From a virus (taxonomy: Duplodnaviria > Caudoviricetes): a DNA stretch of 51,673 nucleotides. The translations under genes were made by a program, and so were the position numbers. Within the stretch, counting starts at the first letter, position 1. Every line of letters begins with the position of its first letter. The notes below the pieces were generated by a model that was not told where the DNA came from, did no database searches, and saw only the letters and a list, made by a program, of their open reading frames with translations. The DNA lies in IMG/VR virus record IMGVR_UViG_3300023260_000002, positions 1-51,673 of that record; one strand, given 5' to 3'. Shown piece by piece: positions 19,457 through 50,425 of the stretch.

Positions 19457-19746
19457 AGAGGCCTCATAATTTCTGCTAATTGATCGGACTCTTTTATAAG
19501 GCTTTTGTAATAACCTTGCCTATTTATATATCCAAAATCATAATATGTACCAGCCAACTGTTCTGCCTCTCTCCTTATCTTTTCACACCTCTCAGCAATG
19601 CTTAATTCTTGAGGTTGATTAACGCCGTTAGCCTGATCTTCAGTAACCAATGATTTACCGTAACCATCATCGTACAGGACCATTTTAGCGGCGGTAGAGG
19701 CTACAGAAACACCAGTAATCGTAGCTAGAAATTGTTTTCTATTCAT
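19453..19746 (-). CDS. Hypothetical protein with Tat-like N-terminus
   Basis: Start MNRKQFLATITGVSVAS; ATGA-coupled to the downstream gene. Confidence 0.55.
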   Translation of the reverse strand: MNRKQFLATITGVSVASTAAKMVLYDDGYGKSLVTEDQANGVNQPQELSIAERCEKIRREAEQLAGTYYDFGYINRQGYYKSLIKESDQLAEIMRPL

Positions 19747-20056
19747 ATTCTGGGAAAAGTATCGATTTAACAATGAAATTCAGTCCGCAAAGACAGATCA
19801 TATAAGCCCCCATTAGATATATAAGCCAGTCGTAATAAATAGCGCTGATAAGGAAGCCGTGAATAGAAGCCATGCAAGGAGGGCAGTCGAATAAAGGCTT
19901 GCTGTACCATGTTCCTTTTATCTTTGGTGGTGAATCATCATTTTCCTTTCGAAGGAGATCACCAATTTTATCAAGCACATATCCATCATAGAACAAGGTG
20001 AAAACACCCCAGCACCAGAAAGATCCAACGACTAAAAGAATAAGAAAATCAGTCAT
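19739..20056 (-). CDS. Small membrane protein with CxxC (DUF1360-like)
   Basis: About 3 hydrophobic segments and the KPLFDCPPCMASIHG motif. Confidence 0.6.
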   Translation of the reverse strand: MTDFLILLVVGSFWCWGVFTLFYDGYVLDKIGDLLRKENDDSPPKIKGTWYSKPLFDCPPCMASIHGFLISAIYYDWLIYLMGAYMICLCGLNFIVKSILFPEYE

Positions 20057-20283
20057 ATTCCTAAAATTTGGTAAATAAAATCCTTCTTAATACCACTCTC
20101 GTCATATTCTCTGAAAAGTCCGCACATTGGCCTGCGATCAACTTGGCAATTGTGAGTGCACGAGCAACCTGTAGACATACAATATCCATTCAAAGATTTA
20201 AGCGGGTTTTTACCATCTCTTATTCTGAATTCATTAACTTCCTCTAAGCTATTACTATCAATTTCAAAGTAGTCCTTACTCAT
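20053..20283 (-). CDS. Hypothetical Cys-rich protein
   Basis: 76 aa ORF coupled to neighbours. Confidence 0.5.
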   Translation of the reverse strand: MSKDYFEIDSNSLEEVNEFRIRDGKNPLKSLNGYCMSTGCSCTHNCQVDRRPMCGLFREYDESGIKKDFIYQILGI

Positions 20284-21043
20284 ATTCAGGAAGGTTAAAT
20301 AGATTAGGCGAAGATACTAATTCCCTTTGATATCCTTTAAGGAAATACCCGGGTTTGGCATTTTTAAGATCCTCGTAAACAAACGCTGACCGGTGAGCTT
20401 TGAATTTAGCGGAACTGTTATCCATCTTCAGTTTAAAGTCTCTGCGAATCCACGAATAGTGATGCATCGTAATATCCACCATCTGCACACCTTTCGTTAT
20501 GTTTAACCTACGAGTAGAGTCTATTCTAGCCTGCCCTCTTTCATAGGCAAACGGATAACCTGCAAATTTCAGGTGATATTTGAGCGTGGGCGTTATCTTA
20601 TGGATGAATGGCACAAGAGTATGGTCTAATCCTATCGTTAACGTAGGGCTTTTAAAATAGGTCTGTACACGGCACACGGTCCCTGCTAAATCCTGATCTT
20701 CTATAGCTTTCTTTTGCTTTATGAAATCGGATTGAACATAGAATTCGTCTGAGTCCATCATTATGAAATGAGTGAATCCACCAGATTTAGCTGCTTCTAA
20801 TCCTGCATTGCGTTTCGCTGTCTCGTTAACATGTGGGACTGTTGAAACGGGTTCACATTGAACTAATTCACATCCCTTAGGCAATTCGTAGTTTCCAAGC
20901 TTATCACCAGAATAGTGACCACGGTTTGATTTTCTGGACCATACTATAATGACCTCATCCACAACCGGGCGTATGTTTTCAACCGCATACGGAAGTAAGC
21001 ATAGACAATCGGCCCATACGTTGAAAATCGCAGCAAGCCTCAT
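20276..21043 (-). CDS. Glycosyltransferase, GT-A fold (GT2-like)
   Basis: RPVVDEVIIV, ETAKRNAGLEAA, FIMMDSDEFY (DxD), MHHYSWIR. Confidence 0.8.
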   Translation of the reverse strand: MRLAAIFNVWADCLCLLPYAVENIRPVVDEVIIVWSRKSNRGHYSGDKLGNYELPKGCELVQCEPVSTVPHVNETAKRNAGLEAAKSGGFTHFIMMDSDEFYVQSDFIKQKKAIEDQDLAGTVCRVQTYFKSPTLTIGLDHTLVPFIHKITPTLKYHLKFAGYPFAYERGQARIDSTRRLNITKGVQMVDITMHHYSWIRRDFKLKMDNSSAKFKAHRSAFVYEDLKNAKPGYFLKGYQRELVSSPNLFNLPEYE

Positions 21044-21543
21044 AAATCAAATTTAGTCACATCTATGAAGTTAGAGACAGCCGTTGCCCATGCCCCGTCT
21101 GTTTCATAATCGATCATATATTTAAACTTCTTTAGTTCTGCGCGCATTTTATAGCCGTGATCTGCCGCTGGCTCAGTATCGTGACACACGATTATTTTAG
21201 CCTTATCTGCGAAGTGGCTTATATCAATTTTCCTTCTTTCCCCTGGAGCGTGATCGATAAATACAACATCAGGTGCAGGACATTCATGGTGTAATGTATT
21301 CCAATCCTGGAATAACTTAATATGTGGATATGCCCCTTTCATTTTTATGTACCATCCATAATTGTTCTCTCCACTGATCAATTCTCTACTGTGTTCTTTT
21401 GCGTATTCAGTGAGGAAAGGAGTAGATCCATAACCGCATCCCATCTCAACTATCTGTCCGGATGTTGCTTCAAGTGCTTCCCATAATAGCGGGCGATGGC
21501 TATCGTAGTTACTGGTTATCTGGATGAACTTTTCCTTTGTCAT
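21040..21543 (-). CDS. Class I SAM-dependent methyltransferase
   Basis: VEMGCGYGST motif I, DVVFIDH, IVCHDT. Confidence 0.8.
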   Translation of the reverse strand: MTKEKFIQITSNYDSHRPLLWEALEATSGQIVEMGCGYGSTPFLTEYAKEHSRELISGENNYGWYIKMKGAYPHIKLFQDWNTLHHECPAPDVVFIDHAPGERRKIDISHFADKAKIIVCHDTEPAADHGYKMRAELKKFKYMIDYETDGAWATAVSNFIDVTKFDL

Positions 21544-22037
21544 AAGCAATCGATTACCTTTTTACACTCTCCAAATACTGAAATCTCATTCTTTCCGGTC
21601 AAAGGCAAGTTATCAGTCAGCAATAAAAGCTGTTCTTTTGAGATAATATACTTCCACTCGTCTCTTATCTCTACAGGTTCACCTTTTGCTTTCTTATTAC
21701 GAATGTAATTTATGAACGTGTTAGGGTTGTTCCCCCATGATATATTGCCTATCCGAATGATATTGTATGAAGGAAAGTATTGTTTTACTAAATCCTCCAT
21801 TTCTAACTTATGCTTTGTGTATCTGCTGACCTTGAAGTTTATTGAAAGAGTACTGAAATAGAAACAGCATTTTATACCAAAAGATAATGATGCAATAGCA
21901 TTAAAACGTAGCAGTCCTATTTCTCTTTGAAATTCAAGTTCGTCGGTACAGTTACTATTACTTACACCAGATGCAAAGATTAAAGCCCCTGTACGGTCAT
22001 TTAGTACGCTTGCGATATCTCCATTGCCTACGATCAC
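21540..22037 (-). CDS. Short NAD-dependent epimerase/dehydratase-like protein
   Basis: MIVGNGDIA Rossmann start, FASGVSNS, YFST, YxxxK (YTKHK). Confidence 0.75.
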   Translation of the reverse strand: MIVGNGDIASVLNDRTGALIFASGVSNSNCTDELEFQREIGLLRFNAIASLSFGIKCCFYFSTLSINFKVSRYTKHKLEMEDLVKQYFPSYNIIRIGNISWGNNPNTFINYIRNKKAKGEPVEIRDEWKYIISKEQLLLLTDNLPLTGKNEISVFGECKKVIDCL

Positions 22038-22285
22038 AGAGACTCAACTTTAAATTCATGCCATTTATCTACAAGCTCATCATACCATGATTTAATTATT
22101 TCTTTATTCGCGTCAGTATCAAAGGCACAAAAGAAATGCACTGGCTTTTCCGTATCACACAGAAACACCTCAAATCCCCACGGAAACGCATAGCCTTGAA
22201 CAGTTAAAACTCTAGGTTCCTTAATAGCGTTGATTCTACTTAGGTCAATGATTGTGTTGCTTTTAGTTTTGTATAGTGAATTCAT
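22034..22285 (-). CDS. Hypothetical protein
   Basis: Small coupled ORF (MNSLYK...). Confidence 0.55.
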   Translation of the reverse strand: MNSLYKTKSNTIIDLSRINAIKEPRVLTVQGYAFPWGFEVFLCDTEKPVHFFCAFDTDANKEIIKSWYDELVDKWHEFKVESL

Positions 22286-22830
22286 GACTGAAGTATAAAC
22301 AGTGAGTCCCAATAGTTAAAACCCATTCCGTGCTGACTTGTTTTATCATGCTTTACCGGAAAGTATCCGAGTGATAACAACTTATCTTCCATTTCTTTTA
22401 CCTGAGCATCACCGTATATTTTAGTGTGAAGATGAAATTCGCACGAGATTTGCTTTGCTGGTGCTTCAGTGAGTGACATGATTACTTCGTATTCGCTGCC
22501 CTCTATGTCCATCTTTATAAGATCCCAGAAATCAACATCCACATCTTTGGAAAACCGTTCAATCGTCAACATTAGAATATCATAGCCTTCAACTTTTTGT
22601 GTCGCTTGTGGATCTGATCCTTTTCTTATTGAGCATCGTCCAACTTTAGATCCAATACCAACTTGAAAATATCCCTCCGGTCCTAAGTAGTCTATATCAA
22701 CAGCGTATACATCATGGCCCATAGTTCTCAACGCACCTGTAAATAAGAATCCACGGCACCCCAAATCAAGAATTTTAGCTTTTTCTGGAAGAAGTGTTTC
22801 TTCTATGGTATGCTCTGCGATTGTGATCAT
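22282..22830 (-). CDS. FkbM-family methyltransferase
   Basis: ILDLGC, DLIKMDIEGSEYEVI, QISCEFH. Confidence 0.88.
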   Translation of the reverse strand: MITIAEHTIEETLLPEKAKILDLGCRGFLFTGALRTMGHDVYAVDIDYLGPEGYFQVGIGSKVGRCSIRKGSDPQATQKVEGYDILMLTIERFSKDVDVDFWDLIKMDIEGSEYEVIMSLTEAPAKQISCEFHLHTKIYGDAQVKEMEDKLLSLGYFPVKHDKTSQHGMGFNYWDSLFILQS

Positions 22831-23000
22831 GTTACTTTTATTTTCTGTTCGTGATACTTCAATACCTTAAACCAACATGACCGACAAAGCATGTGTAATC
22901 TGATCGCGTGATTATGGTTATACTCCTCGAAAGCTTGATTCCATAATTCAGTCTTTTGACTAAACGTTTTCTTTAGCATTTCAATTTCTTCGACTGTCAT
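22827..23000 (-). CDS. Small hypothetical protein with CxxC
   Basis: MTVEEIEML...LCRSCWFKV; ATGA overlaps on both sides. Confidence 0.6.
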   Translation of the reverse strand: MTVEEIEMLKKTFSQKTELWNQAFEEYNHNHAIRLHMLCRSCWFKVLKYHEQKIKVT

Positions 23001-23644
23001 TTGAAATGCATTTTTTGAACTATCCCTCCCTTCTCCCAATTATACCTCGTTGCTCCGGTGAATGGCTTGCTTCCAGCCTCGTAAAGGAACAGGCTCATCA
23101 TTGTTTCATCTGATCTATGCCCTTGCAGTTGTTCACCACATTGCTCTACCATGTTTCCGAATAAACCTTTCTGCTCTGATTCCATCCACCTACCGAAGAT
23201 ATATTCACAGCCTGGAATATCAAAGTCAAAGTAATAAAGAGATCCGCCAACCAGGTGTTTATCTTTTATGTATTGCCTATCCTTTCCGATGTAGCGAAGC
23301 GCTTTGTCTGAACAAAAGCCGGTAAGTTTGTTGTCATCCTGTACAGCTAAAACACCTTTATGATCTGCAGTGTGCTGGTCATAGTATTCCAGTTTATCCT
23401 GAATGACACAAGTGCAATCGATGAAGAATATTTTCTTGTATCCTTGATTCCTGGCTATCTGAATAGCATGAGGTTTGAACCCGTAGAGAGATTCATTAAA
23501 TGGCCTGGCTCCATCTGGCATACGGTCAACCCATTCGAATAAACGAACGTCAGGATTTGTCGCCTGAAGAGTTTCTTTCATTCGGCCTAACCGCCACACG
23601 TACTTTTCTCCGAAGGCTACGGAGGTAACTGCTATTTCATTCAT
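22997..23644 (-). CDS. Putative glycosyltransferase, GT-A-like
   Basis: YGFKPHAI, IFFIDCT (degenerate DxD), GHRSDET motifs. Confidence 0.6.
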   Translation of the reverse strand: MNEIAVTSVAFGEKYVWRLGRMKETLQATNPDVRLFEWVDRMPDGARPFNESLYGFKPHAIQIARNQGYKKIFFIDCTCVIQDKLEYYDQHTADHKGVLAVQDDNKLTGFCSDKALRYIGKDRQYIKDKHLVGGSLYYFDFDIPGCEYIFGRWMESEQKGLFGNMVEQCGEQLQGHRSDETMMSLFLYEAGSKPFTGATRYNWEKGGIVQKMHFK

Positions 23645-23843
23645 TATTTGTTGATTTTTTTAACGCTCCTTCACCATAAGTACCAACACCATCAATTACA
23701 TATATGTAACAGGAGCCACCTAGTGCCAACTGGCTTATGTCAATTGATCTGTCGATTATTTTACCTATATGATTTGGGTATTTATCCGATCGATAGACAC
23801 CTACCAATTCAACTATTTCGCCAATTTCAAATTGCCATTGCAT
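23637..23843 (-). CDS. Small SH3/KOW-like hypothetical protein
   Basis: FEIGEIVELV...GKIID pattern. Confidence 0.5.
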   Translation of the reverse strand: MQWQFEIGEIVELVGVYRSDKYPNHIGKIIDRSIDISQLALGGSCYIYVIDGVGTYGEGALKKSTNNE

Positions 23844-24727
23844 AGCTTCCTAAATTCTTTTACGTAGTTGATCCACCATTTAAAATCCTCATTAGGAAAA
23901 ACAGTGTGTAACATTTCGATAGTCTTTTTAAACTTTGCGTCATCGTTCTGAATGCTATGGAACATGTGGCAATCTACAAATTCTTTGTGGTCTAACGTCC
24001 AGTTCGACCGGTCAACTCTCCCAATGGGATATCCGGTTCTATTATCGGTACCCCTATCAATTCGTGTAGGCACATGCTTTGAATCGTTTATACGCTTTGT
24101 AATCAAATCCTGGTCAGTAACCCATCGATTTGTCTTATCATTGCTTTTTGCTTGTGGTAGCCTGTCAAGATCGTATTTAATATACCCATTATAATCATCA
24201 TGCGAAAGGTGCATTATTTCAGACCACACAACAGAAGGAGCCCCAATATAACATATTGGATAGTGATAGTCTGTAAGATCGCGGCCGTAAACTGTAAGCT
24301 TGTCCATTTCAGGCTTCCAGTAGTCTGAAATGGGAAGCATGTCTATATCTCCGGTCATTACGTAGCCATCTACAATACAAGATCCGTAAAGTCTGGATAC
24401 TTGGGTGATCGTATCTGATTGATATCCTTGTATTGACAATGGTAAAACATTCATACCGCCAAGTACTAAAATTTCAAAATCTGAAGGATTGTTCCATGTT
24501 TCTGAATTATAGAATATAATTGGTTCCCATCCAAAGTATTTCCATGCCCAAACTGTTAGTGGAACATGGAATAGGTAATCCGGGTTATCGTTTACTGAAA
24601 GTACTATGTATTTTTTCATGCTGCTTTTATTTCTTGTGGTGTAATCCTCATAGTCTATTTCAACCTGATATCTCTTCCCAGTTTTAATCACTATAACCCA
24701 ATCACCGTTATCGAATATTCCTCTCAT
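23813..24727 (-). CDS. Putative glycosyltransferase, GT-A-like
   Basis: Core starts at MKKYIVLS (24619); TQVSRL, VMTGDIDMLP (DxD), YPICYI, WVTDQ. Confidence 0.65.
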   Translation of the reverse strand: MRGIFDNGDWVIVIKTGKRYQVEIDYEDYTTRNKSSMKKYIVLSVNDNPDYLFHVPLTVWAWKYFGWEPIIFYNSETWNNPSDFEILVLGGMNVLPLSIQGYQSDTITQVSRLYGSCIVDGYVMTGDIDMLPISDYWKPEMDKLTVYGRDLTDYHYPICYIGAPSVVWSEIMHLSHDDYNGYIKYDLDRLPQAKSNDKTNRWVTDQDLITKRINDSKHVPTRIDRGTDNRTGYPIGRVDRSNWTLDHKEFVDCHMFHSIQNDDAKFKKTIEMLHTVFPNEDFKWWINYVKEFRKLCNGNLKLAK

Positions 24728-25242
24728 TGCTTCGTTATTACAGCAGTCTGCCAGTCTTCGTGCCCAGGTTCCTTGTAAATAGTTATCGGCATTCCTTCAA
24801 TCAACTTATCAGTTAGCGGCCAGTGCTCAAGGTCTGCGCTTTTCTGATGGAAATTGTCAATGATTAGATAACCGCCATGTTTTAGTTTTTGTAGCGCGTA
24901 CTTGGTGCATTTGTCCCGATGGATTCCGTCTATAACAATTATATCAAAAGAATCAACAAATCTCATTATCGATATACCAGAATAGGATTCTTCGGTCAAA
25001 GCAACCATATAGTATGCCCCGCGTTGCTTAGGAACATATGCGAGATTATGATCTACTCCGCATGTAATTGCGGATTTCTGTATAAACCACTCGCTAGAGT
25101 CACCTAATCCGTATTCAAATACGTATTTGCCTTTCAGATCAATCGTACTCAACCACTCCAAACATGGTGAAGTATACCACGGCATTATCAGTCCGTTGCT
25201 AGGATCAATACGCCTGCCTCCTTCTAGTTTCTCGCCTAACAT
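24724..25242 (-). CDS. Class I SAM-dependent methyltransferase
   Basis: VFEYGLGDSS, FDIIVIDGIHR, LKHGGYLIIDN. Confidence 0.82.
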   Translation of the reverse strand: MLGEKLEGGRRIDPSNGLIMPWYTSPCLEWLSTIDLKGKYVFEYGLGDSSEWFIQKSAITCGVDHNLAYVPKQRGAYYMVALTEESYSGISIMRFVDSFDIIVIDGIHRDKCTKYALQKLKHGGYLIIDNFHQKSADLEHWPLTDKLIEGMPITIYKEPGHEDWQTAVITKQ

Positions 25243-25378
25243 ATCATTTTAATCTGGTTCACAATCAAGACAATGACCGATGATAAAGTCAGCCATGCAA
25301 TAAATTGCAAATTGTTCTACCGTTCACATTCAATATCCGATTTTTCGGATACAGGGAATAAAGACTTTATCCACTTTA

Positions 25379-26185
25379 CTAACGAGCCCAATAGCATATA
25401 TCTGAATGTTCTTTTTCAAATTCACTATAATCTGTTTTGTCGAAGCGTTTGAAGAAACGTAGAACCTCCATGTCAACCACTCCAGCAGATCCGATGTGTC
25501 TGCAAGTTAAATTGCTTTCCCATAGTTTTGGGTCAACGCCTAATATTTGATTACTTACTGATGTCCTTAATATCTTCACTTTCTCGCTACAGCCCTGAAA
25601 AAAATGACCAATCATGTTGTCTTTTGCTTTAGGGTAAATGTCAGCCATTAATAGTTGTTGATCGCTTCCTCGCTGAGTTAAATTCCATCGCTTAGTCATA
25701 TAATCCAGTGATTTCCATTGTGGGAATAGCTGCCTGAATATATCAGTCCTAAAACCAATCATTCCACCCATCATAGGTAAACTGTGAGCCTGATTATCCG
25801 TAATACTATGAAAGCCTAATCCAGAATCTATCCACTCCTGCACAGCCTGAGCTTCTTTATAAGTGGTTATTGCATCAGCATCTCGGCATATAACATGAGT
25901 TATCCCAACGCTTTCAGACATTATAACTGGGTACATTCTTTCTAGCATTGACCGACATAAAACAGCATCTTCGTGCAGATCAACCCAAACTCCGTTGGCT
26001 TTTAGATTTAAGAAGAAACTATTGTATTCGCTGTTTTGTATTGATCTTGAAATGGTTACATACATTTTCCAGCCTGGGTAAATAAGATTGTTCATTCTCC
26101 AGTTAAAATAAATTCCACGGAGATAAGACATGAACTCAAACTTTTCACATGGTGCACTGAAAATCGAATACGCGATTACTTTCAT
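25379..26185 (-). CDS. Putative glycosyltransferase, GT-A-like
   Basis: IAYSIF, IYPGW, ICRDADA (DxD), AVQEWIDSG..FH, MMGGMIG, GSDQQLL. Confidence 0.7.
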   Translation of the reverse strand: MKVIAYSIFSAPCEKFEFMSYLRGIYFNWRMNNLIYPGWKMYVTISRSIQNSEYNSFFLNLKANGVWVDLHEDAVLCRSMLERMYPVIMSESVGITHVICRDADAITTYKEAQAVQEWIDSGLGFHSITDNQAHSLPMMGGMIGFRTDIFRQLFPQWKSLDYMTKRWNLTQRGSDQQLLMADIYPKAKDNMIGHFFQGCSEKVKILRTSVSNQILGVDPKLWESNLTCRHIGSAGVVDMEVLRFFKRFDKTDYSEFEKEHSDICYWAR

Positions 26186-26337
26186 TTGTAGACCTTTATA
26201 TTAAGCTTTGCGCGTAGCTCTTCCCATGTAATGCCTTGCTCTTTCATTTGCTTACGCTCGATGAATGTAGGTTGGTTCAAATCAGATATTAGTTTAGCTC
26301 GTCTATCGGATAACTCCTTTTCGGTTGGTGCTTTCAT
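26182..26337 (-). CDS. 51-aa hypothetical protein
   Basis: MKAPTEKELSDRR...KVYK; ATGA overlaps both neighbours; below the ORF-track cutoff. Confidence 0.6.
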   Translation of the reverse strand: MKAPTEKELSDRRAKLISDLNQPTFIERKQMKEQGITWEELRAKLNIKVYK

Positions 26338-26885
26338 TTGTAATAGTAGTAAAGTATATCTGAAATAGAATGCATGGTTTTTACGACTCCAGATTTATGT
26401 ATTTGCTCTGCCCATGTCATGTCTTCCCCAAAGTTCTTGTTTTGGAAACTGAAGTCTTTAACAAGATCCAATCGCCAAAAGTTAAGATGGTTTGGGAATC
26501 TGTGGTATTTCTCCTTATCCTCCCATGCATGAGTACATCCTAAGTAATGATGGAATGGCTTTATGAATTTTCCTTTCTCGTAGTAATGGCCCCATAGTTC
26601 TCCACAATCCAATCCGATATCCATTGTTTCAATACCTCTCTGGATGTATGTAGGCCCTGGCATATCATCATCATCGAAGAAGGAAATGTAATATGCATTG
26701 TTTTCTATCGCCGCCTGAACAAGCTTATTGCGCTTTGCTCCTGTTGTTTCCTGTCTCTGATCTTCTGCTATGAGCAGTATTACTTCTTTATCTATGCGCT
26801 GCTTATCCAGTTCTGAAACAAGCCTGTTAAGAAGCTGCTGGCGCTCTGTGAGTGTTGGGATTAGGATAGCGAGTAGTGGTTTCAT
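26334..26885 (-). CDS. Glycosyltransferase family 2-like
   Basis: LAILIPT, TGAKRNKL, YISFFDDDD, FGED. Confidence 0.88.
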   Translation of the reverse strand: MKPLLAILIPTLTERQQLLNRLVSELDKQRIDKEVILLIAEDQRQETTGAKRNKLVQAAIENNAYYISFFDDDDMPGPTYIQRGIETMDIGLDCGELWGHYYEKGKFIKPFHHYLGCTHAWEDKEKYHRFPNHLNFWRLDLVKDFSFQNKNFGEDMTWAEQIHKSGVVKTMHSISDILYYYYK

Positions 26886-27045
26886 GATGAGTATCCTTTC
26901 CAAAAGGCATGTGCTTCAGCCTTTGTTTTTACAACCATAAATATTGATTCACATATAGGATCAAGAAGAGGTAATAATTTAGGGTTCTTTTCTTCCATCT
27001 CTTTCTTGACCTGGTTTTTAAACTCTTCTTTTCTTTATCGCTCAT
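26882..27045 (-). pseudogene. Small ORF with apparent 1-nt frameshift
   Basis: ATG coupled to the upstream stop (MSDKE) and a different frame (KEEFKNQVKKEM...WKGYSS) coupled to the downstream ATG. Confidence 0.45.
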
Positions 27046-27743
27046 CTTCTTCCTTTGTATTTATCGAATGGAGTAGGCCCTGGATTGTTAACGAAAAAGT
27101 TCTTATTCAGTCTTTCGAAATAAGTTGCAGTGTCCTGCTTTTGAAACTTCTCATTCTCCACATACAATTGATCGCTCTTCACTCCTTTTACATTTGCCGG
27201 GTGAACGTGTTTGTAAAGTAGATCAGGAAAGTAATGGTAACGTTTCAGCGTCTGCGCCACGTACATGGCTTCAGCGTCACAACTTAATGACCGGTAACAT
27301 GGAGCATATATGTAAAAGAAGCGTTCGTAATATTCTCGGCCCATGATTGACATCGTGGCAAGCTTTGGACCCTGGAATCCATCATTAAAGTTTGCAAAGA
27401 AATCCAGCGAATTCGGCCAAACGCTTTTTATCTTCTCAATCATTATCTGATCCCAGCCTTTCACAATGAATTGCATGTCGTCCGACATATTTACCAGCCA
27501 GTCCCAGCCTGATAAAGGAATGTTAGCATTAATCGCTCCTATCTTTCCTCCAAAGTTGTCATTGATATAAAACTGAGTGTTTGGAAATCCTGAGTTATTA
27601 GCAATGGTGATCATGTCTTGATCGTCGCTGTCTATACTTACAATGATTTGAAAGTCTCGAGTAACGGTGGATAAAATGTTGTCCATTGCCTGGATGAATT
27701 TGCCGGGGCGGTGTCTACTAGCGTATTTTATCAGGAGGCGCAT
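27042..27743 (-). CDS. Glycosyltransferase family 2-like
   Basis: ASRHRP, IIVSIDSDD, KIGAIN, LVNMSDDM, KHVHP. Confidence 0.82.
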   Translation of the reverse strand: MRLLIKYASRHRPGKFIQAMDNILSTVTRDFQIIVSIDSDDQDMITIANNSGFPNTQFYINDNFGGKIGAINANIPLSGWDWLVNMSDDMQFIVKGWDQIMIEKIKSVWPNSLDFFANFNDGFQGPKLATMSIMGREYYERFFYIYAPCYRSLSCDAEAMYVAQTLKRYHYFPDLLYKHVHPANVKGVKSDQLYVENEKFQKQDTATYFERLNKNFFVNNPGPTPFDKYKGRR

Positions 27744-28381
27744 ACATTTAATTTATCTGCTAAAGATCGATAAAAATCAAAGCTTTCCGAATCCACATGC
27801 GCTGCCAACCACTTCATTTCAGGATCTTTATTTCTCATAACGAATTGATGCCCTTTCCCTCCGCAAAGACCCATACCTGTTTTTATTCCTACAGCACCGG
27901 TATCAGTGAATATCCTTTTCTTATGCCTGGCGTATTTCCATATATCGATATCAAGGAAAGGTTTTGAGTCGTCCGGCCAATCGAAATTGTTCAGTGCAGA
28001 TATTTTGAATCCTGTAGTGAAAAGGCTTGACCTGTATTGGTGATCAAATCGGTTATAGGTGAGGTTTCGAAGATTGTAGTACCAGGAGCATTCTTGACCG
28101 AAGAAGTCGTATTGCTCAAAGAATGGTTCATATCGATAGAAATAATCGAATGGATAGAAATCGTCGTTCTCAATTACGAAACATAAATCAAACCCTTCAG
28201 CTTCAGCTTGCTTTACACCGTCATAGATTCGAGAAACCAAATCAAAGCCTGATCCTACCGGAGAGTTATTCATGTGGAATATCCTATCAGGCTTTAATGT
28301 CATTCTTTCCAGTTGCCGGAAGCAGAAGGACGTTAGTTTGGGCCGGTCATTTCTATCAGGAATAATGGCCGCAAATCTCAT
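27731..28381 (-). CDS. Glycosyltransferase family 2-like
   Basis: AAIIPDRNDRP, RQLERMTLKPD, FVIENDDFYP. Confidence 0.78.
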   Translation of the reverse strand: MRFAAIIPDRNDRPKLTSFCFRQLERMTLKPDRIFHMNNSPVGSGFDLVSRIYDGVKQAEAEGFDLCFVIENDDFYPFDYFYRYEPFFEQYDFFGQECSWYYNLRNLTYNRFDHQYRSSLFTTGFKISALNNFDWPDDSKPFLDIDIWKYARHKKRIFTDTGAVGIKTGMGLCGGKGHQFVMRNKDPEMKWLAAHVDSESFDFYRSLADKLNVCAS

Positions 28382-28632
28382 TCGGGTATCAATTCAACTC
28401 CATCGCTCATATCTGTAAATAACCTCATTGGTTGAAACTTCTGACCGAAAGTTAAGCGCGAATAATATATTTTACCGGTTTTATTGATCTGCTTTATTTC
28501 ATCCTCAGTGAGTTCATAACATGCAATTATCTCACCTTCCGGACCGGGCACCTGCATTGCATGTATCACGCTATACTCTGGTTGGCCCTTACCTATCTCA
28601 AGGTTGCATCCTGGAAACTTGACTGATTTCAT
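28378..28632 (-). CDS. Hypothetical phage protein
   Basis: 84 aa; GKGQPEY...ACYELTEDE...TGKIY...TFGQKFQP. Confidence 0.6.
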   Translation of the reverse strand: MKSVKFPGCNLEIGKGQPEYSVIHAMQVPGPEGEIIACYELTEDEIKQINKTGKIYYSRLTFGQKFQPMRLFTDMSDGVELIPE

Positions 28633-29170
28633 ATACCGGTAAAATTTGTTTCAATACTGTATTCTCATTTCCTATCCACACTTTAACTCCACAGTTTTCA
28701 AGCTGCTCAAATAGCATCTTATAGTAATCGAACTCTATACTAAAACTTCGCTTTCCTGGTGAATAGGTGTGATGGTTTGTCATATCGATGCCCCAAAGGA
28801 TTATCTCTGTTGCACCTTCTCTTACAGCTAAAGTAATTGCTACAAACGGAGAAGTCTTTGAAGAGTAAATGCGGCCTTTTTTATATGTACCTACAAAGTT
28901 TCTAAGTCCAAGCAATTCAGCCTCAGGAAACCACTTCTTCCAGTTGTTATTATGGCAGAAGAACCGTTTAGGCTTGCTGTCGGTGATCACCTTTAACCGG
29001 TCTGTGTATTTATTGTCTAAGCGGGGATGGAATTTAAAAGGAGAATTAACCACAACCAGGTAATCAGTAGGATGACCGAATTTCCAAGCATCATTTACTC
29101 CGATAGAATGACCTCTTGGTATCCAGTCCTTAGCGGTAGAGCCACAGCCTATGATACTATATGTGTTCAT
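28598..29170 (-). CDS. DUF115/Maf/Cst-II-like putative transferase
   Basis: IIGCGST, SIGVND, DYLVVVN, TSPFVAITLA...GATEIILWGIDM. Confidence 0.7.
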   Translation of the reverse strand: MNTYSIIGCGSTAKDWIPRGHSIGVNDAWKFGHPTDYLVVVNSPFKFHPRLDNKYTDRLKVITDSKPKRFFCHNNNWKKWFPEAELLGLRNFVGTYKKGRIYSSKTSPFVAITLAVREGATEIILWGIDMTNHHTYSPGKRSFSIEFDYYKMLFEQLENCGVKVWIGNENTVLKQILPVYEISQVSRMQP

Positions 29171-29412
29171 TTTATTGTATCGTTTACTTTTCTGCTTTTG
29201 CAGAAAGCTAGAGCCATACCTTCATAAAATGTTTCTATTCTTCCAGAAGAATCAATGACCGTTAAAACATGGTGAGAATTTAATCCATGTTCCTCGAAGG
29301 ATATTGCTATAATCCTTACGGGTGATTTCATTTCTGATAGAATATCACTTTCGCTTTTATAGCTCCTTTCATTGCAACTGAAAATGAGAAGCAGGACAAA
29401 TAAATATTTCAT
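29167..29412 (-). CDS. Small lipoprotein
   Basis: MKYLFVLLLIFSC signal with lipobox Cys. Confidence 0.65.
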   Translation of the reverse strand: MKYLFVLLLIFSCNERSYKSESDILSEMKSPVRIIAISFEEHGLNSHHVLTVIDSSGRIETFYEGMALAFCKSRKVNDTIK

Positions 29413-29923: not shown

Positions 29924-29955
29924 CGAATGTACGTACAGCATACTGGCAAAACAAC
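29924..29955 (-). promoter_or_regulatory. Candidate promoter (TACATTCG -7 variant) overlapped by palindrome TGTACGTACA
   Basis: -7-like box at 29924-29931; perfect 10-bp palindrome at 29928-29937. Confidence 0.45.
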
Positions 29956-31259
29956 TATTCCTCCCTGTATTTGTCTGGGTTCTTGATGAAATCAGAATAG
30001 AATGTTCCAATCATGTAACGCACGTTGTCAAAGAAGTGCCTACCCTCATCTTTTGTCTTTATTAATTCGCCCTGGCCGTCTACTTGAGCATAGACACAAT
30101 CATTTATAGTCTTTTTGCATCCCGCCGTAATTCTGAATTGCGCATGCTGAAGAACCGAACAGCATAAATTACGGGAATCTTTATGTGCCAGGTTTGCAGA
30201 TCTGACTAATAGGTTTCTATCCTGCAATTCAAGATCCTGTTTGATTTGTGTGTAAGCATTAATATTCCCCCGCTTTACTTTCTCCCGGTTGCGCCCGGTT
30301 GCATCGCCTGTAACGTCAATAAAGCCGAGCCAGTGCATGTATTTGACTTTAATGATCTCGTTTATTTCCTCCACAGATCCTGTTTTTACTTCAATTTCAT
30401 CGAAAATAGTCCCTATCCATCCATCTAACTGGCCGACTAGGGCCGTCATTGGCTCAACGTTGAAATCGTATGAGATCAGTATGGGGAGATGTGGATTTGG
30501 TTCGTATTCCGGAATTATATGCTTCCCAAGTGAGAAATTATAGAAATATGGCTTATCTACCGCGAAAGCTGACCAATCGCCGTCAATCATCCTTGCCTTT
30601 GTTAGCGGGTCCAGGTGGGCCGTTACATTGTGCATGTAGAACTCATCATTGAACAGTGCTGGGTTGTCGCTTATCTTAGCGGGCTCGTAAAACCAATCCT
30701 TTGGAAGGGTTCCTACATTGTACCGATCGTAGATCTGTTCCTTTGGCCAGGTCAGAGTTGGATTTACATTGCAAATGATCAGCGGGCGTGGCATTTTGTC
30801 GATTAGATGCCTTCCAGCGCGGACAAAGCAGATATCCAATAGCCCTTTCTGCAGCTCTTCAATCTGTTCAAGCAGGAATCCATTAACTTCCAATCCCTTG
30901 AAACGGTCAAAATCCTTATCATCCTCCCAGTTTTCAGCCATGAACAATATTTGGCTGTCATTGTTGAAGGTGTAAACCTGGTCTTGCTGATTGTATGACT
31001 TTACGAAATTGGTTGGGACTATCTTTTTAAAGCTTTCAAGTGTGGTTCGCTTCAAAGTAGGGACTGATTCACGGATAACACACCATTTAGATTTTGGATA
31101 GGCTTTGCAGAGCAATAGAAGCGTGGCCAGGCAAACATAAGTCTTGCCGCCACCCATTGCACCACCATAGCATAGAAGCGAGTATAGACCCGAGAAAACA
31201 GCTTCTATAAACTCCTGCTGTTTTGGGTAAGGTTTGAAGAAAACGCGCTCAGAATTCAA
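29955..31259 (-). CDS. terL: Terminase large subunit
   Basis: PYPKQQEF, Walker A GGAMGGGKT, Walker B-like FLLEQ, CNVNP, nuclease SYDFN, GDATG, HFFDNVRY. Confidence 0.93.
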   Translation of the reverse strand: MNSERVFFKPYPKQQEFIEAVFSGLYSLLCYGGAMGGGKTYVCLATLLLLCKAYPKSKWCVIRESVPTLKRTTLESFKKIVPTNFVKSYNQQDQVYTFNNDSQILFMAENWEDDKDFDRFKGLEVNGFLLEQIEELQKGLLDICFVRAGRHLIDKMPRPLIICNVNPTLTWPKEQIYDRYNVGTLPKDWFYEPAKISDNPALFNDEFYMHNVTAHLDPLTKARMIDGDWSAFAVDKPYFYNFSLGKHIIPEYEPNPHLPILISYDFNVEPMTALVGQLDGWIGTIFDEIEVKTGSVEEINEIIKVKYMHWLGFIDVTGDATGRNREKVKRGNINAYTQIKQDLELQDRNLLVRSANLAHKDSRNLCCSVLQHAQFRITAGCKKTINDCVYAQVDGQGELIKTKDEGRHFFDNVRYMIGTFYSDFIKNPDKYREE

Positions 31260-31803
31260 TTTTTTGCCCGCCTATTTCCATGATCTGTTTTTCAGGTAAA
31301 AGCAGTCTAAGCTTCTCAGGCTCATTGTAGCCTAACATCTTAGAAATGCTTTCCAGGGCTTTTAATTTATCGAAAAGCTTGATTTTAATATAATCTACCT
31401 GAACTGGTACTTGTTCCTCAGTTTCAGGGTCATATTTGGATTCCATCCTGGTTTGAGTCTCAATCTGGCAGATAGCCGCTTTTTGTTCTGCTGTCAACTT
31501 CTCAAATTCCTTGCGCTCCACCCAGGTATTATGCAGGTCGGCTATTGAGCTATAGGCGATCTTTTCGTACTCACGTAATACCCGTAGTCGGCTTATTCCG
31601 GCTGTTTTTTCAAGATCTGTCTGAATTTCTTTGATGTAAGCCTGTATTTCAGGTTTCTTAAGGTTTTCTGATCCGATAGATCCAGCTGTATCCTTGCTAT
31701 ATCCCGCTGCCTTAGCGGCTCTTGTGGCGTTCCAATCAAATATGTATTCCTCGCAGAATCTCTTTTGTTTCTCTGTAAGGTCTATGGGTTTTGATTCCTC
31801 CAT
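31249..31803 (-). CDS. terS: Terminase small subunit
   Basis: LTEKQKRFCEEY...NATRAAKAAGYS...ENLKKPEI; DKLKALE. Confidence 0.95.
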   Translation of the reverse strand: MEESKPIDLTEKQKRFCEEYIFDWNATRAAKAAGYSKDTAGSIGSENLKKPEIQAYIKEIQTDLEKTAGISRLRVLREYEKIAYSSIADLHNTWVERKEFEKLTAEQKAAICQIETQTRMESKYDPETEEQVPVQVDYIKIKLFDKLKALESISKMLGYNEPEKLRLLLPEKQIMEIGGQKIEF

Positions 31804-48365: not shown

Positions 48366-48696
48366 CCTTGACTATCTGTTTTTGCCTTCCGACTATCGCA
48401 ACGATGCTCGCTGTTGCCCCGATTATTAGAAATACTGCCGTCCAAAGTTCTGTCCGGGTGACGTACGTACTTGTTTGATCCTTCATCTGCTGACGCCACT
48501 CATTCTGTCCTTCGAATTTTGCTACGTTTACAGCCTCAACTTTCCCTACAGCGTCACGGATGGATTTGATCTCAGCGTCCGTGTAACGCTTAAGCCACTC
48601 CACCTGATTGTTTACGTAGGCTCTTGGGTCTTCGGATTGAGTGTCTGTTTGAGCGAATGCGGAAAAGGAAAGCAGTATAAGGATAAGTGTTTTCAT
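48352..48696 (-). CDS. Membrane protein (signal peptide, coiled coil, C-terminal TM)
   Basis: FSAFAQ cleavage site; KFEGQNEWRQQMKDQ...YVTRTE. Confidence 0.6.
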   Translation of the reverse strand: MKTLILILLSFSAFAQTDTQSEDPRAYVNNQVEWLKRYTDAEIKSIRDAVGKVEAVNVAKFEGQNEWRQQMKDQTSTYVTRTELWTAVFLIIGATASIVAIVGRQKQIVKGGHS

Positions 48697-49403
48697 TGTA
48701 CCGCCTTGACGGCTTCAATTATCTTCGCTTTGAAAGTCTCCAGATCCACGACCGGCTTAGGTGCTTCTTTGAATTGCTGCTTCAACCATTCCAAAAGCTG
48801 ATCCTGGCCGGGTGTCACGCTACACGCTTTCTCCCAAGAATTATGACCAACACCAGGGTATAGTGTATAACCCCATTCTGTATCATGGGTGCTATTGTAA
48901 GCATCCACGAAAGACTTTGATTTACTGTATGGGACTGTTTTGTCCGCATCGCCGTGAAAAGCCCATCCGGGCATCTCCGGAAATGATGCAGCCAATTTTG
49001 AATCCATGCCCCCGCATATCGGAACCACTCCGTCAACCAGCCGGAATTTATCGTAGTAAACAGTATCGAAAGCACCGAAACCTCCCATGCTTAGGCCCAT
49101 CACGTAAACGACTCTTAATTTATGCCACAGCTTTGCGTAAGCGGGCATGAAGTACTTTATCTGATTGTAGGAAGAGGCACACTGCGGTACTAACAAATGG
49201 AATGGGAATTCGAAACCTGCCGCTGCATGCCTGGGGTATCCGTTTTTAAGAACAAGCTCAAGCTTGCTGCCGTCTATAGGGCCACGTTCACCAATACCGT
49301 GCAAGAAAACGACTCCAAAATCGCAAGGCTCTTTAGGTGCGAAGTGGATGTAATTGAATTTCATTCCGAAGGCAGTAGCTCCTATGTAGTCTTTTCTTAT
49401 CAT
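48693..49403 (-). CDS. Alpha/beta-hydrolase (esterase / predicted peptidase)
   Basis: VFLHGIGERG, GLSMGG nucleophile, FHGDADKTVP, GVGHNSW: intact Ser-Asp-His triad. Confidence 0.88.
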   Translation of the reverse strand: MIRKDYIGATAFGMKFNYIHFAPKEPCDFGVVFLHGIGERGPIDGSKLELVLKNGYPRHAAAGFEFPFHLLVPQCASSYNQIKYFMPAYAKLWHKLRVVYVMGLSMGGFGAFDTVYYDKFRLVDGVVPICGGMDSKLAASFPEMPGWAFHGDADKTVPYSKSKSFVDAYNSTHDTEWGYTLYPGVGHNSWEKACSVTPGQDQLLEWLKQQFKEAPKPVVDLETFKAKIIEAVKAVQ

Positions 49404-49915
49404 TCGTCTTCGTTTAATTTTTCATGTGGCCATCCGGCTCCAATAAGGTGCTTATATTCTGTCTCTGCATCGAAGCAGGGACAAACAAGAGCCCACTCAT
49501 TTGGCTCCACTACTCCTATTCCATTGCTTAAATTTCTATGCCCTGTGATACGCTTTACATTCCCTGAAGCATATTCTAAGGCATCGAGTATGCATTCTAT
49601 AAGAGATTCCTTTTGTGGTGCCGTTCTAGTATCCTTAACCTTGCCTCTTTCGTCCAGACCACCTTCGTAACAGATTGCGATAGATCCTGAATTACGACCC
49701 TGCACGTGATGGCATGTAGAATCGAAGTGTCTGCCTATATGTTTACTTCCATCCCGGGATACGAATAGGTGATACTCACATCCATTAAACCCACGAGCTT
49801 TATGATCTTTTATGCATTGAGCAAAAGTATAATCAACTGTCTCCCGTGACCCGGATGAATGTACGACTATTAAATCAACATTTCTTCTGTCGTAATTCCT
49901 GAGGCCCTTTTCCAT
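49400..49915 (-). CDS. N-acetylmuramoyl-L-alanine amidase (Amidase_2, T7-lysozyme-like)
   Basis: IVVHS, YH, SIAICYEGGLD...DTRTAPQK, GHR, CPCFD. Confidence 0.88.
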   Translation of the reverse strand: MEKGLRNYDRRNVDLIVVHSSGSRETVDYTFAQCIKDHKARGFNGCEYHLFVSRDGSKHIGRHFDSTCHHVQGRNSGSIAICYEGGLDERGKVKDTRTAPQKESLIECILDALEYASGNVKRITGHRNLSNGIGVVEPNEWALVCPCFDAETEYKHLIGAGWPHEKLNEDE

Positions 49916-49930
49916 TTTTTATTACTTTGC

Positions 49931-50425
49931 TCATATTATAACAAAGCCAATAATTTTCAATCCATCGCGAACTTCTTTTTTAACTACTCGGTTTACTTCA
50001 TACACGCCGTCACCATTCCTACTCCCCGCTGTACTAGCATTTCCTTCTATGCTTTTAAATGTCGTTTCATTGATTACCTCAGACACTATACCGGTGTGTC
50101 CTGTCCACTCCGCCTTGCCATCCTCGTACTTCTGCCAAAATACCAATGATCCAACTACTGGAACATCTGAGGTTTTATAGCCAGCATTTACCAGATTTCG
50201 GAATGTATTTACCGCACTTGGTACAAATAGCCCTTTAACTTTTTCTTTCATTTCCGGAAATGCTTCCCATATCCACTTCTCCAAAATAGATGCACACCAA
50301 GCCCAGCCAGGTTGCCACCCTACATCCATCATCGCAAGCTCCAGTTCCCTATCATGAAAGCCAGAATTGCCAGGCTTCTCTTTCTTTCCAAGGTCTTTTT
50401 TTGCAACTTCAATGAGTTTGTTCAT
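49931..50425 (-). CDS. CHAP-domain endolysin
   Basis: AWCAS, GHTGIV, SIEGN. Confidence 0.88.
   Translation of the reverse strand: MNKLIEVAKKDLGKKEKPGNSGFHDRELELAMMDVGWQPGWAWCASILEKWIWEAFPEMKEKVKGLFVPSAVNTFRNLVNAGYKTSDVPVVGSLVFWQKYEDGKAEWTGHTGIVSEVINETTFKSIEGNASTAGSRNGDGVYEVNRVVKKEVRDGLKIIGFVII

Follow-up and report, generated by a model that had tools for sequence, protein, structure and literature searches.

What would a tailed phage build with a dozen glycan-forming enzymes carried among its packaging and tail genes? The question is raised by IMG/VR virus record IMGVR_UViG_3300023260_000002 (Caudoviricetes), the whole of which, 51,673 bases with a completeness rating of 100% and a GC content of about 40%, is the window analyzed here. 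The initial annotation of the window noted twelve enzyme-like open reading frames (ORFs) on the late strand, between the gene for the large terminase subunit (terL) and the tail genes, taking up about 17% of the genome, and proposed that they glycosylate the virion. All twelve were found, and each is named here by its low coordinate. They lie tightly packed on the minus strand at positions 20276–29170, an island that covers 8,895 of the 51,673 bases (17.2%). Systems of this kind, in which a phage or other virus encodes glycan machinery amid its late genes, are already known. The results bear out the initial proposal in part and contradict nothing that the initial annotation observed: the enzymology is supported, while the virion as target is argued from analogy and gene position. 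The phage's own virion proteins are the best reading of the glycan acceptor, and by analogy with known systems we give this reading roughly an even chance.

Enzymes encoded by the island

The twelve proteins are, in low-coordinate order, 255, 169, 165, 182, 215, 304, 172, 268, 189, 233, 216 and 190 amino acids (aa) long. A hydropathy scan found no transmembrane (TM) helix in any of the twelve, in agreement with the initial annotation; the N-terminus of ORF 20276 gave a marginal hydropathy of 1.7, where the first GT-A strand would lie. Two flanking ORFs differ, with a lipoprotein-like signal in 29167–29412 and two to three TM segments in 19739–20056.

Seven proteins (20276, 22997, 23813, 25379, 26334, 27042 and 27731) had been called GT-A- or GT2-like glycosyltransferases (GTs). 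Six of these calls are supported, by structure models, PHROG matches or profile–profile alignment, and the seventh, 22997, is only a candidate glycosyltransferase. None of the seven reached the gathering cut-off of the Pfam family Glycos_transf_2 (PF00535, 23.3 bits): ORFs 20276, 26334 and 27042 scored 16.9, 20.1 and 17.3 bits, and 22997, 23813, 25379 and 27731 had no match to this family at all. In single-sequence scans against Pfam, NCBIfam and PHROG, no family above threshold was found for 21040, 22997, 23813, 24724, 25379 and 27731, and ORF 22282 was the sole island ORF to exceed a curated threshold. Alignment of family profiles with hhalign linked 27731 to the 26334 family (99.9%) and 20276 to the 27731 family (94.9%). 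Inspection of the translations by eye showed the acidic motifs DSD (20276), DDDD (26334), SDD (27042) and NDD (27731).

The proteins 23813 and 25379 were examined through AlphaFold (AF2) models, with predicted local distance difference test (pLDDT) values of 94.4 and 94.8, respectively. In Foldseek searches the 23813 model matched retaining-type GT-A enzymes, namely GT6 ABO transferases, the bacterial GT6 enzyme 4ayl and GT8 glycogenin at E values of about 1e-6 (6e-7). VIA aligned it to heparosan synthase (8vh7_A; Z 13.2, root-mean-square deviation (rmsd) 3.3, 166 residues aligned) and, with Z of 11.4–12.6, to KfiA, WrtF, GT6 and GT8. In a family alignment of 48 sequences D90 and D92 (modelled numbering), the aspartates of a DxD motif, are invariant. 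The 25379 model matched GT-A enzymes in Foldseek (E 3e-6), including mannosylglycerate synthase, SpsA, RmlT, TarP, WrtF and glycogenin, and gave VIA Z scores of 11.2–12.3 (2y4j_B: Z 12.3, rmsd 3.2, 179 aligned). Across 49 members of this family R101 and D102 are invariant and D104 nearly so. Both models thus match the GT-A fold, a single Rossmann-like nucleotide-sugar domain with a DxD motif, and the structure searches returned GT folds as the initial annotation predicted, in this case for these two modelled proteins. Their Foldseek matches comprise GT6, GT8 and GT78 enzymes, and no single CAZy family is indicated.

Other searches with the island proteins returned little. When the 23813 model was searched against the folds in BFVD, the matches were all generic GT-A proteins, from giant viruses and uncultured phages (TM-score about 0.5, 8–16% identity), and profile searches of PDB sequences with the island family alignments gave a best E of 0.0014 or worse. 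The PDB rows that did appear in the latter, an Ig-like repeat, Clostridioides difficile toxin A repeats and staphylococcal enterotoxin B (E ≥ 0.0014), were judged to be chance matches. Against a cultured-phage collection, tblastn gave no match for 23813 and six records with less than 30% identity for 25379. For 22997 the matches are weak and ambiguous: of 120 relatives, 10 matched DUF1647 (best E 5.9e-4), 3 matched GT8 and, equally, 10 matched the unrelated family FERM_f0. No profile link joined it to the other island families (hhalign below 2%), and its PDB profile matches were noise. In all, the island encodes at least six soluble GT-A-type GTs, drawn from at least four mutually unrecognizable sequence families.

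Three ORFs had been called S-adenosylmethionine (SAM) methyltransferases. ORF 22282 is firmly assigned by sequence to the FkbM methyltransferases (Pfam PF05050, Methyltransf_21, 33.3 bits against a cut-off of 22.7; PHROG methyltransferase, 6.9e-5), with 21.7 bits against TIGR01444, under that model's 37.7. The other two are probable methyltransferases. In the 21040 family an ExGxGxGST motif is invariant in 40 sequences, and sub-threshold Pfam matches among 40 relatives were to Methyltransf_23 (6/40), Methyltransf_17 (4/40), Methyltransf_25 (3/40) and Methyltransf_31 (3/40). The PDB profile match of 21040 to 3iht is weak (E 2.2); its nearest Atlas clusters include a "Methyltransferase family protein" (feature score 0.97). 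ORF 24724 aligns with the 21040 family (hhalign 93.6%) and gave Methyltransf_24 at E 0.053.

The remaining transferase, 28598, had been described as DUF115/Maf/Cst-II-like, and its Maf/Cst-II likeness is supported. Its fold relatives would lie in the MptE-like (PF01973) superfamily, which takes in the Maf flagellin GTs, the Cst-II sialyltransferases (GT42) and the 3-deoxy-D-manno-oct-2-ulosonic acid (Kdo) transferase WaaZ. By sequence it falls under every curated threshold, with 11.7 bits (E 0.23) against the 34.6-bit cut-off of Pfam MptE-like, a weak PHROG sialyltransferase match (phrog_4603, 1.2e-4) and weak Cst-II rows in the PDB profile search (E about 0.4); the matched Cst-II chains are longer, at 258–291 aa against 190 aa. 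An ESM-Atlas model of the exact protein (pTM 0.85) has structure neighbors at TM-scores of 0.74–0.82, among them a WaaZ_KDO_III cluster (0.79) and an MptE-like cluster (0.76), both of which pass the tool's naming threshold, predicted models standing on both sides of the comparison. A shared MptE-like/Maf/Cst-II/WaaZ fold is therefore supported at the level of predicted models.

ORF 21540 had been called an NAD-dependent epimerase-like protein. The nucleotide-binding and catalytic motifs are kept, since G4, G6 and A9 (GxGxxA) and Y73 and K77 (YxxxK) are invariant in the 14 sequences of its family, whereas its RmlD_sub_bind score is 19.9 bits against a cut-off of 27 and its 165 aa compare with 287 profile positions. 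Apart from this short protein, resembling short-chain dehydrogenases/reductases (SDRs), the phage has no recognized sugar-nucleotide synthesis gene.

A recurrent core and its fusions

Relatives were collected through a terL search of IMG/VR (7 loci) and a search with a 23813 profile (best 80 of 110 relatives), and the ORFs of 86 loci were searched with iterated hidden Markov models (HMMs). The majority of the loci entered the set via 23813, so that the counts are conditional on its presence. Three of the terL relatives (L002, L004 and L007) carry island homologs in the same order past terL, at 27–54% identity. Matches to 23813 were found in 79 of the 86 loci, to 25379 in 77, to 26334 in 67, to 21040 in 66, to 27731 in 65 and to 27042 in 60. 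The corresponding numbers are 21 for 22282, 19 each for 20276 and 22997, 14 each for 24724 and 28598, and 13 for 21540. The gene maps show a recurrent order of 27042, 26334, 25379, 23813 and 21040, and this five-gene core is common to about 80 uncultured phage contigs with at least four genome architectures. Island size over 79 loci is most often five genes (26/79) and reaches 14, which places the twelve of the window near the top. The full window-type island past terL is present in 13 IMG/VR loci and in L088, and the 28598 family, found in 14 loci, is always the first gene past terL.

The closest association is that between 25379 and 23813. They co-occur in 75 loci, and in 50 of these they are directly adjacent with 25379 first; non-adjacent pairs are mostly a few hundred nucleotides (nt) apart, and where a locus holds just one of the two, this is mostly at the end of a contig. 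One locus encodes both in a single 580-aa protein (L085:9035–10774, E about 5e-69 for each half). Searched against 1.84 billion representative proteins, the 23813 profile gave 2,323 matches at E ≤ 1e-3 and 1,559 at E ≤ 1e-10, and 14 two-domain fusions were present among the best 150 of the 2,323 (P0102, P0116, P0118, P0119, P0123, P0124, P0138, P0139, P0009, P0060, P0082, P0097, P0126 and P0115). Seven of these have 25379 before 23813 and one the reverse, four have 23813 before 21040 and one the reverse, and the last is a weak 22997+23813 fusion (P0115). Because fusions occur in both orders and with both partners, they argue that the two GTs and the methyltransferase-like protein would work on the same product. 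Prediction of a 25379–23813 complex gave no answer (score 0.00), which is evidence neither way.

Position in the genome is also conserved. The initial annotation had pointed to related phage contigs as the place to look for the cluster, and in related and unrelated phages alike the island or its core is kept near terminase or structural genes. Of 79 loci, 39 have a terL of the same family as the window's no more than 3.6 kb away from the island; it is on the upstream side in 10 of them and on the downstream side in 29, the latter with a small gene like that of the small terminase subunit (terS) in between; many of the remaining 40 loci are short contigs. In a myovirus-type genome (L016), terL of another family is followed by a twelve-gene island and then by sheath, tube, tape measure and baseplate genes. 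Elsewhere the core comes after replication genes, a GT4 and another GT, and before terS and terL (L036), or stands with a DHH phosphoesterase gene upstream of terL on a 102-kb contig (L049); in L026 the island lies between tail genes and portal. A further locus (L057) has the 25379/23813 pair together with an FkbM methyltransferase, a GT2, an RXYLT1-like gene and two nucleotide-sugar epimerases. The module has moved among unrelated phages and, in most, has settled in the packaging and morphogenesis region.

Gene content varies among related islands, which carry a TylF sugar O-methyltransferase (6.8e-38) and RXYLT1-like, GT2 and GT4 genes, with a wholly different set in L007. Such variation is as expected for a surface glycan under diversifying selection. 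HNH/NUMOD4 homing endonuclease genes stand inside several islands (L004:16405–16986, L011:9528–10001, L012:6517–6993, L013:5202–5768, L015:6332–6832 and L025:8531–9061); the window has two HNH genes, in the early arm only.

Three phage contigs with the island (L088, L089 and L090) are binned in metagenome-assembled genomes (MAGs) labelled Saccharibacteria, Paceibacterota and Bacteroidota, that is, one Bacteroidota and two from the Candidate Phyla Radiation (CPR). The contig of L089, 51,399 bases long, is also the one in the complete virus record G001/L009. This binning reflects either wrong bins or an uncertain host range. A limited scan of genome contigs with a single peptide pattern returned three loci, all phage-like and in MAGs, and no ordinary bacterial polysaccharide locus.

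Genomic setting of the island

The features of the island and its flanks are collected in Table 1. From high to low coordinates the minus strand carries terS, terL, a 543-nt gap, the island with its interspersed small ORFs (29412 down to 20053), the membrane protein 19739–20056 and two further ORFs. These are followed by a tape-measure-like gene (16082–18502), a gene for a 1,021-aa virion protein, the portal gene (7815–9632) and more ORFs of structural size. This order is unusual in that terS, terL, the island and the tail genes precede the portal and head-size genes. The plus-strand arm encodes HNH endonucleases, YopX, a DNA methyltransferase, a replication initiator and a DnaC-like loader, and the right end of the genome has Amidase_2 and CHAP lysins. 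Adjoining these lysin genes is an alpha/beta-hydrolase-like ORF on the minus strand (48693..50425; Peptidase_S9, 24.7 bits). Scans of the 51,673-bp window for tRNAs and Rfam families gave no match.

Table 1. Minus-strand features in and around the island, from high to low coordinates
Feature	Coordinates	Strand	Evidence or remark
terS, first gene of the late string	31249..31803	-	Pfam Terminase_2, 127.8 bits
terL	29955..31259	-	PHROG terminase large subunit, phrog_979 1.3e-21, phrog_2 2.5e-20
NikA-like ribbon-helix-helix ORF, 46 aa	29574..29714	-	Pfam PF21983, 33.9 bits vs. cut-off 27
Lipoprotein-like orphan, 81 aa, first ORF of the island	29167..29412	-	N-terminus MKYLFVLLLIFSC; no relatives in 89 loci
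MptE/WaaZ/Cst-II-like transferase, candidate CMP-ulosonic-acid transferase, 190 aa	28598..29170	-	PHROG and ESM-Atlas neighbors
Orphan, 84 aa	28378..28632	-	No relatives
Probable GT-A (GT2-like) glycosyltransferase	27731..28381	-	hhalign to 26334 family; NDD motif
Probable glycosyltransferase, core member	27042..27743	-	PHROG phrog_14945 9.5e-15; Pfam GT2 below cut-off
Probable GT2-like glycosyltransferase, core member	26334..26903	-	PHROG phrog_14775 2.6e-25; Pfam GT2 below cut-off
Orphan, 51 aa	26182..26337	-	No relatives, no Pfam match
Predicted GT-A glycosyltransferase, core member, family without Pfam model	25379..26185	-	AF2 model, Foldseek, DxD
Methyltransferase-like, resembling a paralog of 21040	24724..25242	-	hhalign; weak Pfam
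Predicted GT-A glycosyltransferase, core member, family without Pfam model	23813..24727	-	AF2 model, Foldseek, DxD
Orphan, 68 aa	23637..23843	-	No relatives
Conserved protein, candidate glycosyltransferase	22997..23644	-	359 relatives, all without a Pfam domain
Orphan, 70 aa	22827..23039	-	No relatives
FkbM-family SAM methyltransferase	22282..22830	-	Pfam Methyltransf_21
Orphan, 92 aa	22034..22312	-	No relatives
Short SDR/RmlD-like protein, 165 aa	21540..22037	-	RmlD_sub_bind below threshold; motifs kept
Methyltransferase-like, core member	21040..21549	-	Invariant ExGxGxGST; Atlas cluster name
Probable GT2-like glycosyltransferase	20276..21043	-	Pfam GT2 below cut-off; hhalign; DSD motif
Cys-rich orphan, 76 aa	20053..20283	-	No relatives
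Membrane protein, 105 aa, C-P-x-C-M motif, at the island/tail junction	19739..20056	-	Two to three hydrophobic segments

For the seven small interspersed ORFs, no relatives were found by phmmer (E ≤ 1) or tblastn (E ≤ 0.01) in 89 loci. The true start of ORF 23813 is probably the ATG at 24619, because relatives align from residue 39. The 19739–20056 protein had no family match. Relatives of it occur in 11 loci; its place in the window and in most of these is after the island, and in three it is inside the island (L014:6695–7066, L018:7406–7687 and L088 near 3651).

A terminator-like hairpin of 13 pairs stands just upstream of terS on the minus strand (31871–31842), and the two minus-strand terminator-like sites inside the island (25296 and 23567) have no more than three G–C pairs. 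Since the island has no convincing internal terminator and the 13-pair hairpin precedes terS, it would be co-transcribed with the late genes. The ribbon-helix-helix protein of 46 aa encoded between terL and the island might, at a guess, be a regulator ahead of the latter. Promoter searches gave no further signal: a sigma-70 scan found fewer sites in the window than in shuffled sequences, and the pattern TTG-N19-TAnnTTTG occurred at chance level. A TAnnTTTG match lies 13 nt before the ATG of terS; it is weak, as one of 21 such matches on the minus strand.

The initial annotation placed the phage in Bacteroidota. A Shine-Dalgarno-like motif precedes only 6 of 62 genes, a count that fits such a host without proving it, and the assignment is plausible; relatives are binned in both Bacteroidota and CPR MAGs. 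The terL proteins of the seven loci from the terL search (L001–L007) are 50–78% identical to that of the window. Among cultured phages none is close to the window phage: megablast of the island against 50,697 phage records gave no match and the best terL tblastn matches reached 25–32% identity.

Candidate acceptors of the glycan

Taken as a pathway, the island would encode an assembly line that makes a glycan in the cytoplasm and is expressed together with the morphogenesis genes. Host nucleotide sugars would be the donors from which the soluble GT-A-type GTs, six or more in number, and the MptE/WaaZ/Cst-II-like transferase add one sugar after another, and the product would be O-methylated by the three methyltransferases, one of the FkbM type and two of the 21040-type family that is also found fused to the 23813-type GT. 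The 25379 and 23813 pair, followed by 21040, would form the conserved heart of this pathway, and progeny particles would gain a variable, methylated glycan coat.

Two characterized systems resemble this scheme. Freeman et al. (2023, Cell Host Microbe) reportedly described a virion-glycosylation cassette in mycobacteriophage Corndog (Cluster O). In the Corndog record the gene order is terS (gp31), gp32, gp34, a methyltransferase (gp35), three GTs (gp36–38) and the major head protein (gp41). Corndog and the window thus share a methyltransferase and tandem GTs within the virion gene string downstream of the terminase, encoding soluble enzymes in a lytic phage. They differ in number, with four genes in Corndog and twelve enzymes in the window, and in host, which is actinobacterial for Corndog, whereas the window has Bacteroidota-like expression signals. 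The target is proven for Corndog, where passages in three papers state that the gp35–38 cassette modifies capsid and tail-tube subunits (PMC11600133, PMC12363180, PMC12619734), and proposed for the window.

The second system is A064R of chlorovirus PBCV-1, which a passage in PMC9614988 describes as a soluble protein of three domains, GT, GT and SAM methyltransferase, that finishes and methylates the capsid N-glycan, with the methyltransferase A061L alongside. The order GT, GT, methyltransferase is that of the 25379, 23813 and 21040 genes and is echoed in their fusions, and a second methyltransferase is present in both systems. Both would use cytoplasmic, virus-encoded enzymes, and in both the GT families escape sequence annotation. 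They differ in that A064R belongs to a eukaryotic giant virus and the island to a tailed phage. The chlorovirus glycan genes are expressed early according to the same source (PMC9614988), which differs from the late setting proposed for the island. The parallels with Corndog and A064R are analogies, and with gene position they form the whole basis for taking the virion as acceptor.

The position in question is that of soluble, TM-less enzymes on one strand between terL and the tail genes, which favors a virion acceptor. Several observations weigh against it. The analysis identified no acceptor, nor any glycosylation motif or carrier that is conserved along with the island. No structural gene travels with the island across unrelated phages, and therefore the island cannot depend on one specific virion protein family. 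In L057 the GT pair follows T4-like replication genes and has no adjoining terminase. The closest named structural neighbor of 28598 is an LPS-core (lipopolysaccharide-core) Kdo transferase family, the small membrane protein 19739 accompanies the island, within which it is found in three loci, and a lipoprotein-like ORF opens the island. Late timing is itself read from gene order. The two analogies are likewise limited at the sequence level: Corndog gp35–39 matched none of the 12 island family HMMs by hmmsearch (E ≤ 10) or hhalign (above 40%), and A064R-D1 chains were absent from the PDB profile searches (E ≤ 10). A search of the structural proteins for an S/T-rich acceptor tail gave a sole candidate, the DGEDTSPDTSPD stretch (DTSPDTSPD) near the C-terminus of a 420-aa minus-strand ORF in the head-gene region (4203–5465), which may be a glycosylation site.

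Remodelling of the host envelope is the first alternative, and we regard it as unlikely. Soluble GTs at the cytoplasmic face of the inner membrane would act on lipid-linked intermediates of LPS core, O-antigen, capsule or O-glycosylation, and host flippases would export the altered glycan, for example to block superinfection or to keep progeny from sticking to debris. TM-less GT-A enzymes commonly act on undecaprenyl-linked intermediates, and three of the points just listed fit here: the WaaZ_KDO_III family is among the best named structural neighbors of 28598, the 19739–20056 protein with two to three TM segments is linked to the island, within which L014, L018 and L088 encode it, and ORF 29167–29412 is lipoprotein-like. 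The machinery such a pathway would call for was not seen, as no initiating phosphoglycosyl transferase, flippase, polymerase or GtrA/GtrB was found among the ORFs scanned against Pfam, PHROGs and NCBIfam. The same scans gave no integrase or lysogeny gene, and there is therefore no long-lived lysogen to protect. The genes also stand in the packaging and tail string, not with early or moron genes, and it would be hard to rationalize why a lytic phage gives 17% of its genome to a surface change made late.

A special case of envelope change is serotype conversion, in which gtrABC genes encode a membrane GtrA flippase and GtrC beside the integrase of temperate phages. Both the gtrABC system and the island involve phage-encoded GT2-type enzymes altering a glycan. 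The window differs in that no GtrA/GtrC or integrase match to Pfam or PHROG was present among the scanned ORFs and all twelve enzymes are TM-less. The absence of integrase, membrane GT and flippase families from these ORFs agrees with the initial annotation, which ranked serotype conversion as less likely.

Another acceptor altogether, a free, lipid-bound or protein-bound glycoconjugate, is a reading we consider distinctly improbable. It could be a small-molecule glycoside, or a host cytoplasmic protein modified during host takeover. By their Pfam names, methyltransferases of the FkbM and TylF types are typical of sugar tailoring in secondary metabolism, as are short SDRs, and the fold neighbors include glycogenin-like and Skp1-GT-like structures, whose substrates are cytoplasmic proteins. 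Natural-product GTs are usually of the GT-B fold, whereas those of the island are GT-A, and no genes for aglycone synthesis are present. A glycoconjugate of this kind would also leave the consistent placement near packaging and structural genes in several phage lineages unexplained.

Hypermodification of the phage DNA, in which the GTs and methyltransferases would put a methylated oligosaccharide on its bases before or during packaging and so evade restriction, is very improbable: the island does adjoin terminase genes in many phages, and one island holds a 145-aa Mom-like ORF (L004:12534–12971, 22.0 bits against 27.1) that is the sole hint of DNA modification, but the window yielded neither a phage DNA polymerase nor a nucleotide-metabolism gene, replication being through an initiator and a DnaC-like loader. 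Like the island as proposed, DNA glucosylation by the T-even alpha- and beta-GTs uses phage-encoded GTs and host nucleotide sugars. Such glucosylation needs a hydroxymethyl-pyrimidine pathway, sits with nucleotide-metabolism genes and uses one to a few transferases. Seven transferases and three methyltransferases go, to our knowledge, far beyond DNA glycosylation systems. In six-frame searches the thymidylate-synthase-family hydroxymethylase of that pathway (PF00303) was matched in 0 of 5 records (the window genome and the records of four relatives, three of them 100% complete and one partial; control positive in 10/14 genomes), as the initial annotation had also found no recognizable hydroxymethylase. 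Tet_JBP was likewise matched in 0 of 5 records, a result that is uninformative because the control matched nowhere. Phage GTs that hypermodify DNA with diverse glycans are on record for this alternative (Pyle et al. 2024, as cited in a passage of PMC12619734). The probability left over from the virion, envelope, glycoconjugate and DNA readings is unassigned.

Returning to the virion as acceptor, we propose more tentatively that the triad 25379, 23813 and 21040, with 27042 and 26334, serves tailed phages of the environment widely as an engine of virion glycosylation that has no name as yet. Its likeness to A064R would be convergent, it would share no sequence relationship with the system of mycobacteriophages, and lineages would have extended it with variable transferases, up to twelve enzymes, to make complex, O-methylated, strain-specific coats.

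Four elements of this work are new. The first is a pair of GT-A families that have no Pfam model and are absent from, or weakly matched in, the cultured-phage collection, the 23813 family alone amounting to 2,323 representative clusters. The second is the definition of the five-gene core, and the third the fusion evidence. The fourth is the size of the island, with 11 supported enzymes and the conserved 22997, including at least six GTs and an MptE-like transferase. Our literature searches returned no description of virion glycosylation in Bacteroidota phages or of this module. Virion glycosylation by a phage's own enzymes is, in the literature found, described for mycobacteriophages only, where the glycans reportedly shield particles from antibody binding and lower the production of neutralizing antibodies.

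The present results show that much larger glycan-building sets occupy a like genomic position in unrelated uncultured phages, and that standard annotation misses their enzyme families. The small conserved core with its natural fusions is a first target for biochemistry. Should the glycan coat prove wrong, the enzymes would point to an unrecognized late-stage manipulation of host glycans or DNA. If the core is a virion-glycosylation engine, glycans on the virion would be a common trait among phages of soil and water, far outside the Actinobacteria, and a defined biological role would fall to two new GT-A families. A true coat would bear on phage stability and adsorption in soil and water, on phage–host and phage–predator recognition, on the reading of "auxiliary" glycosyltransferases in viromes, and on the choice or engineering of phages with altered surfaces.

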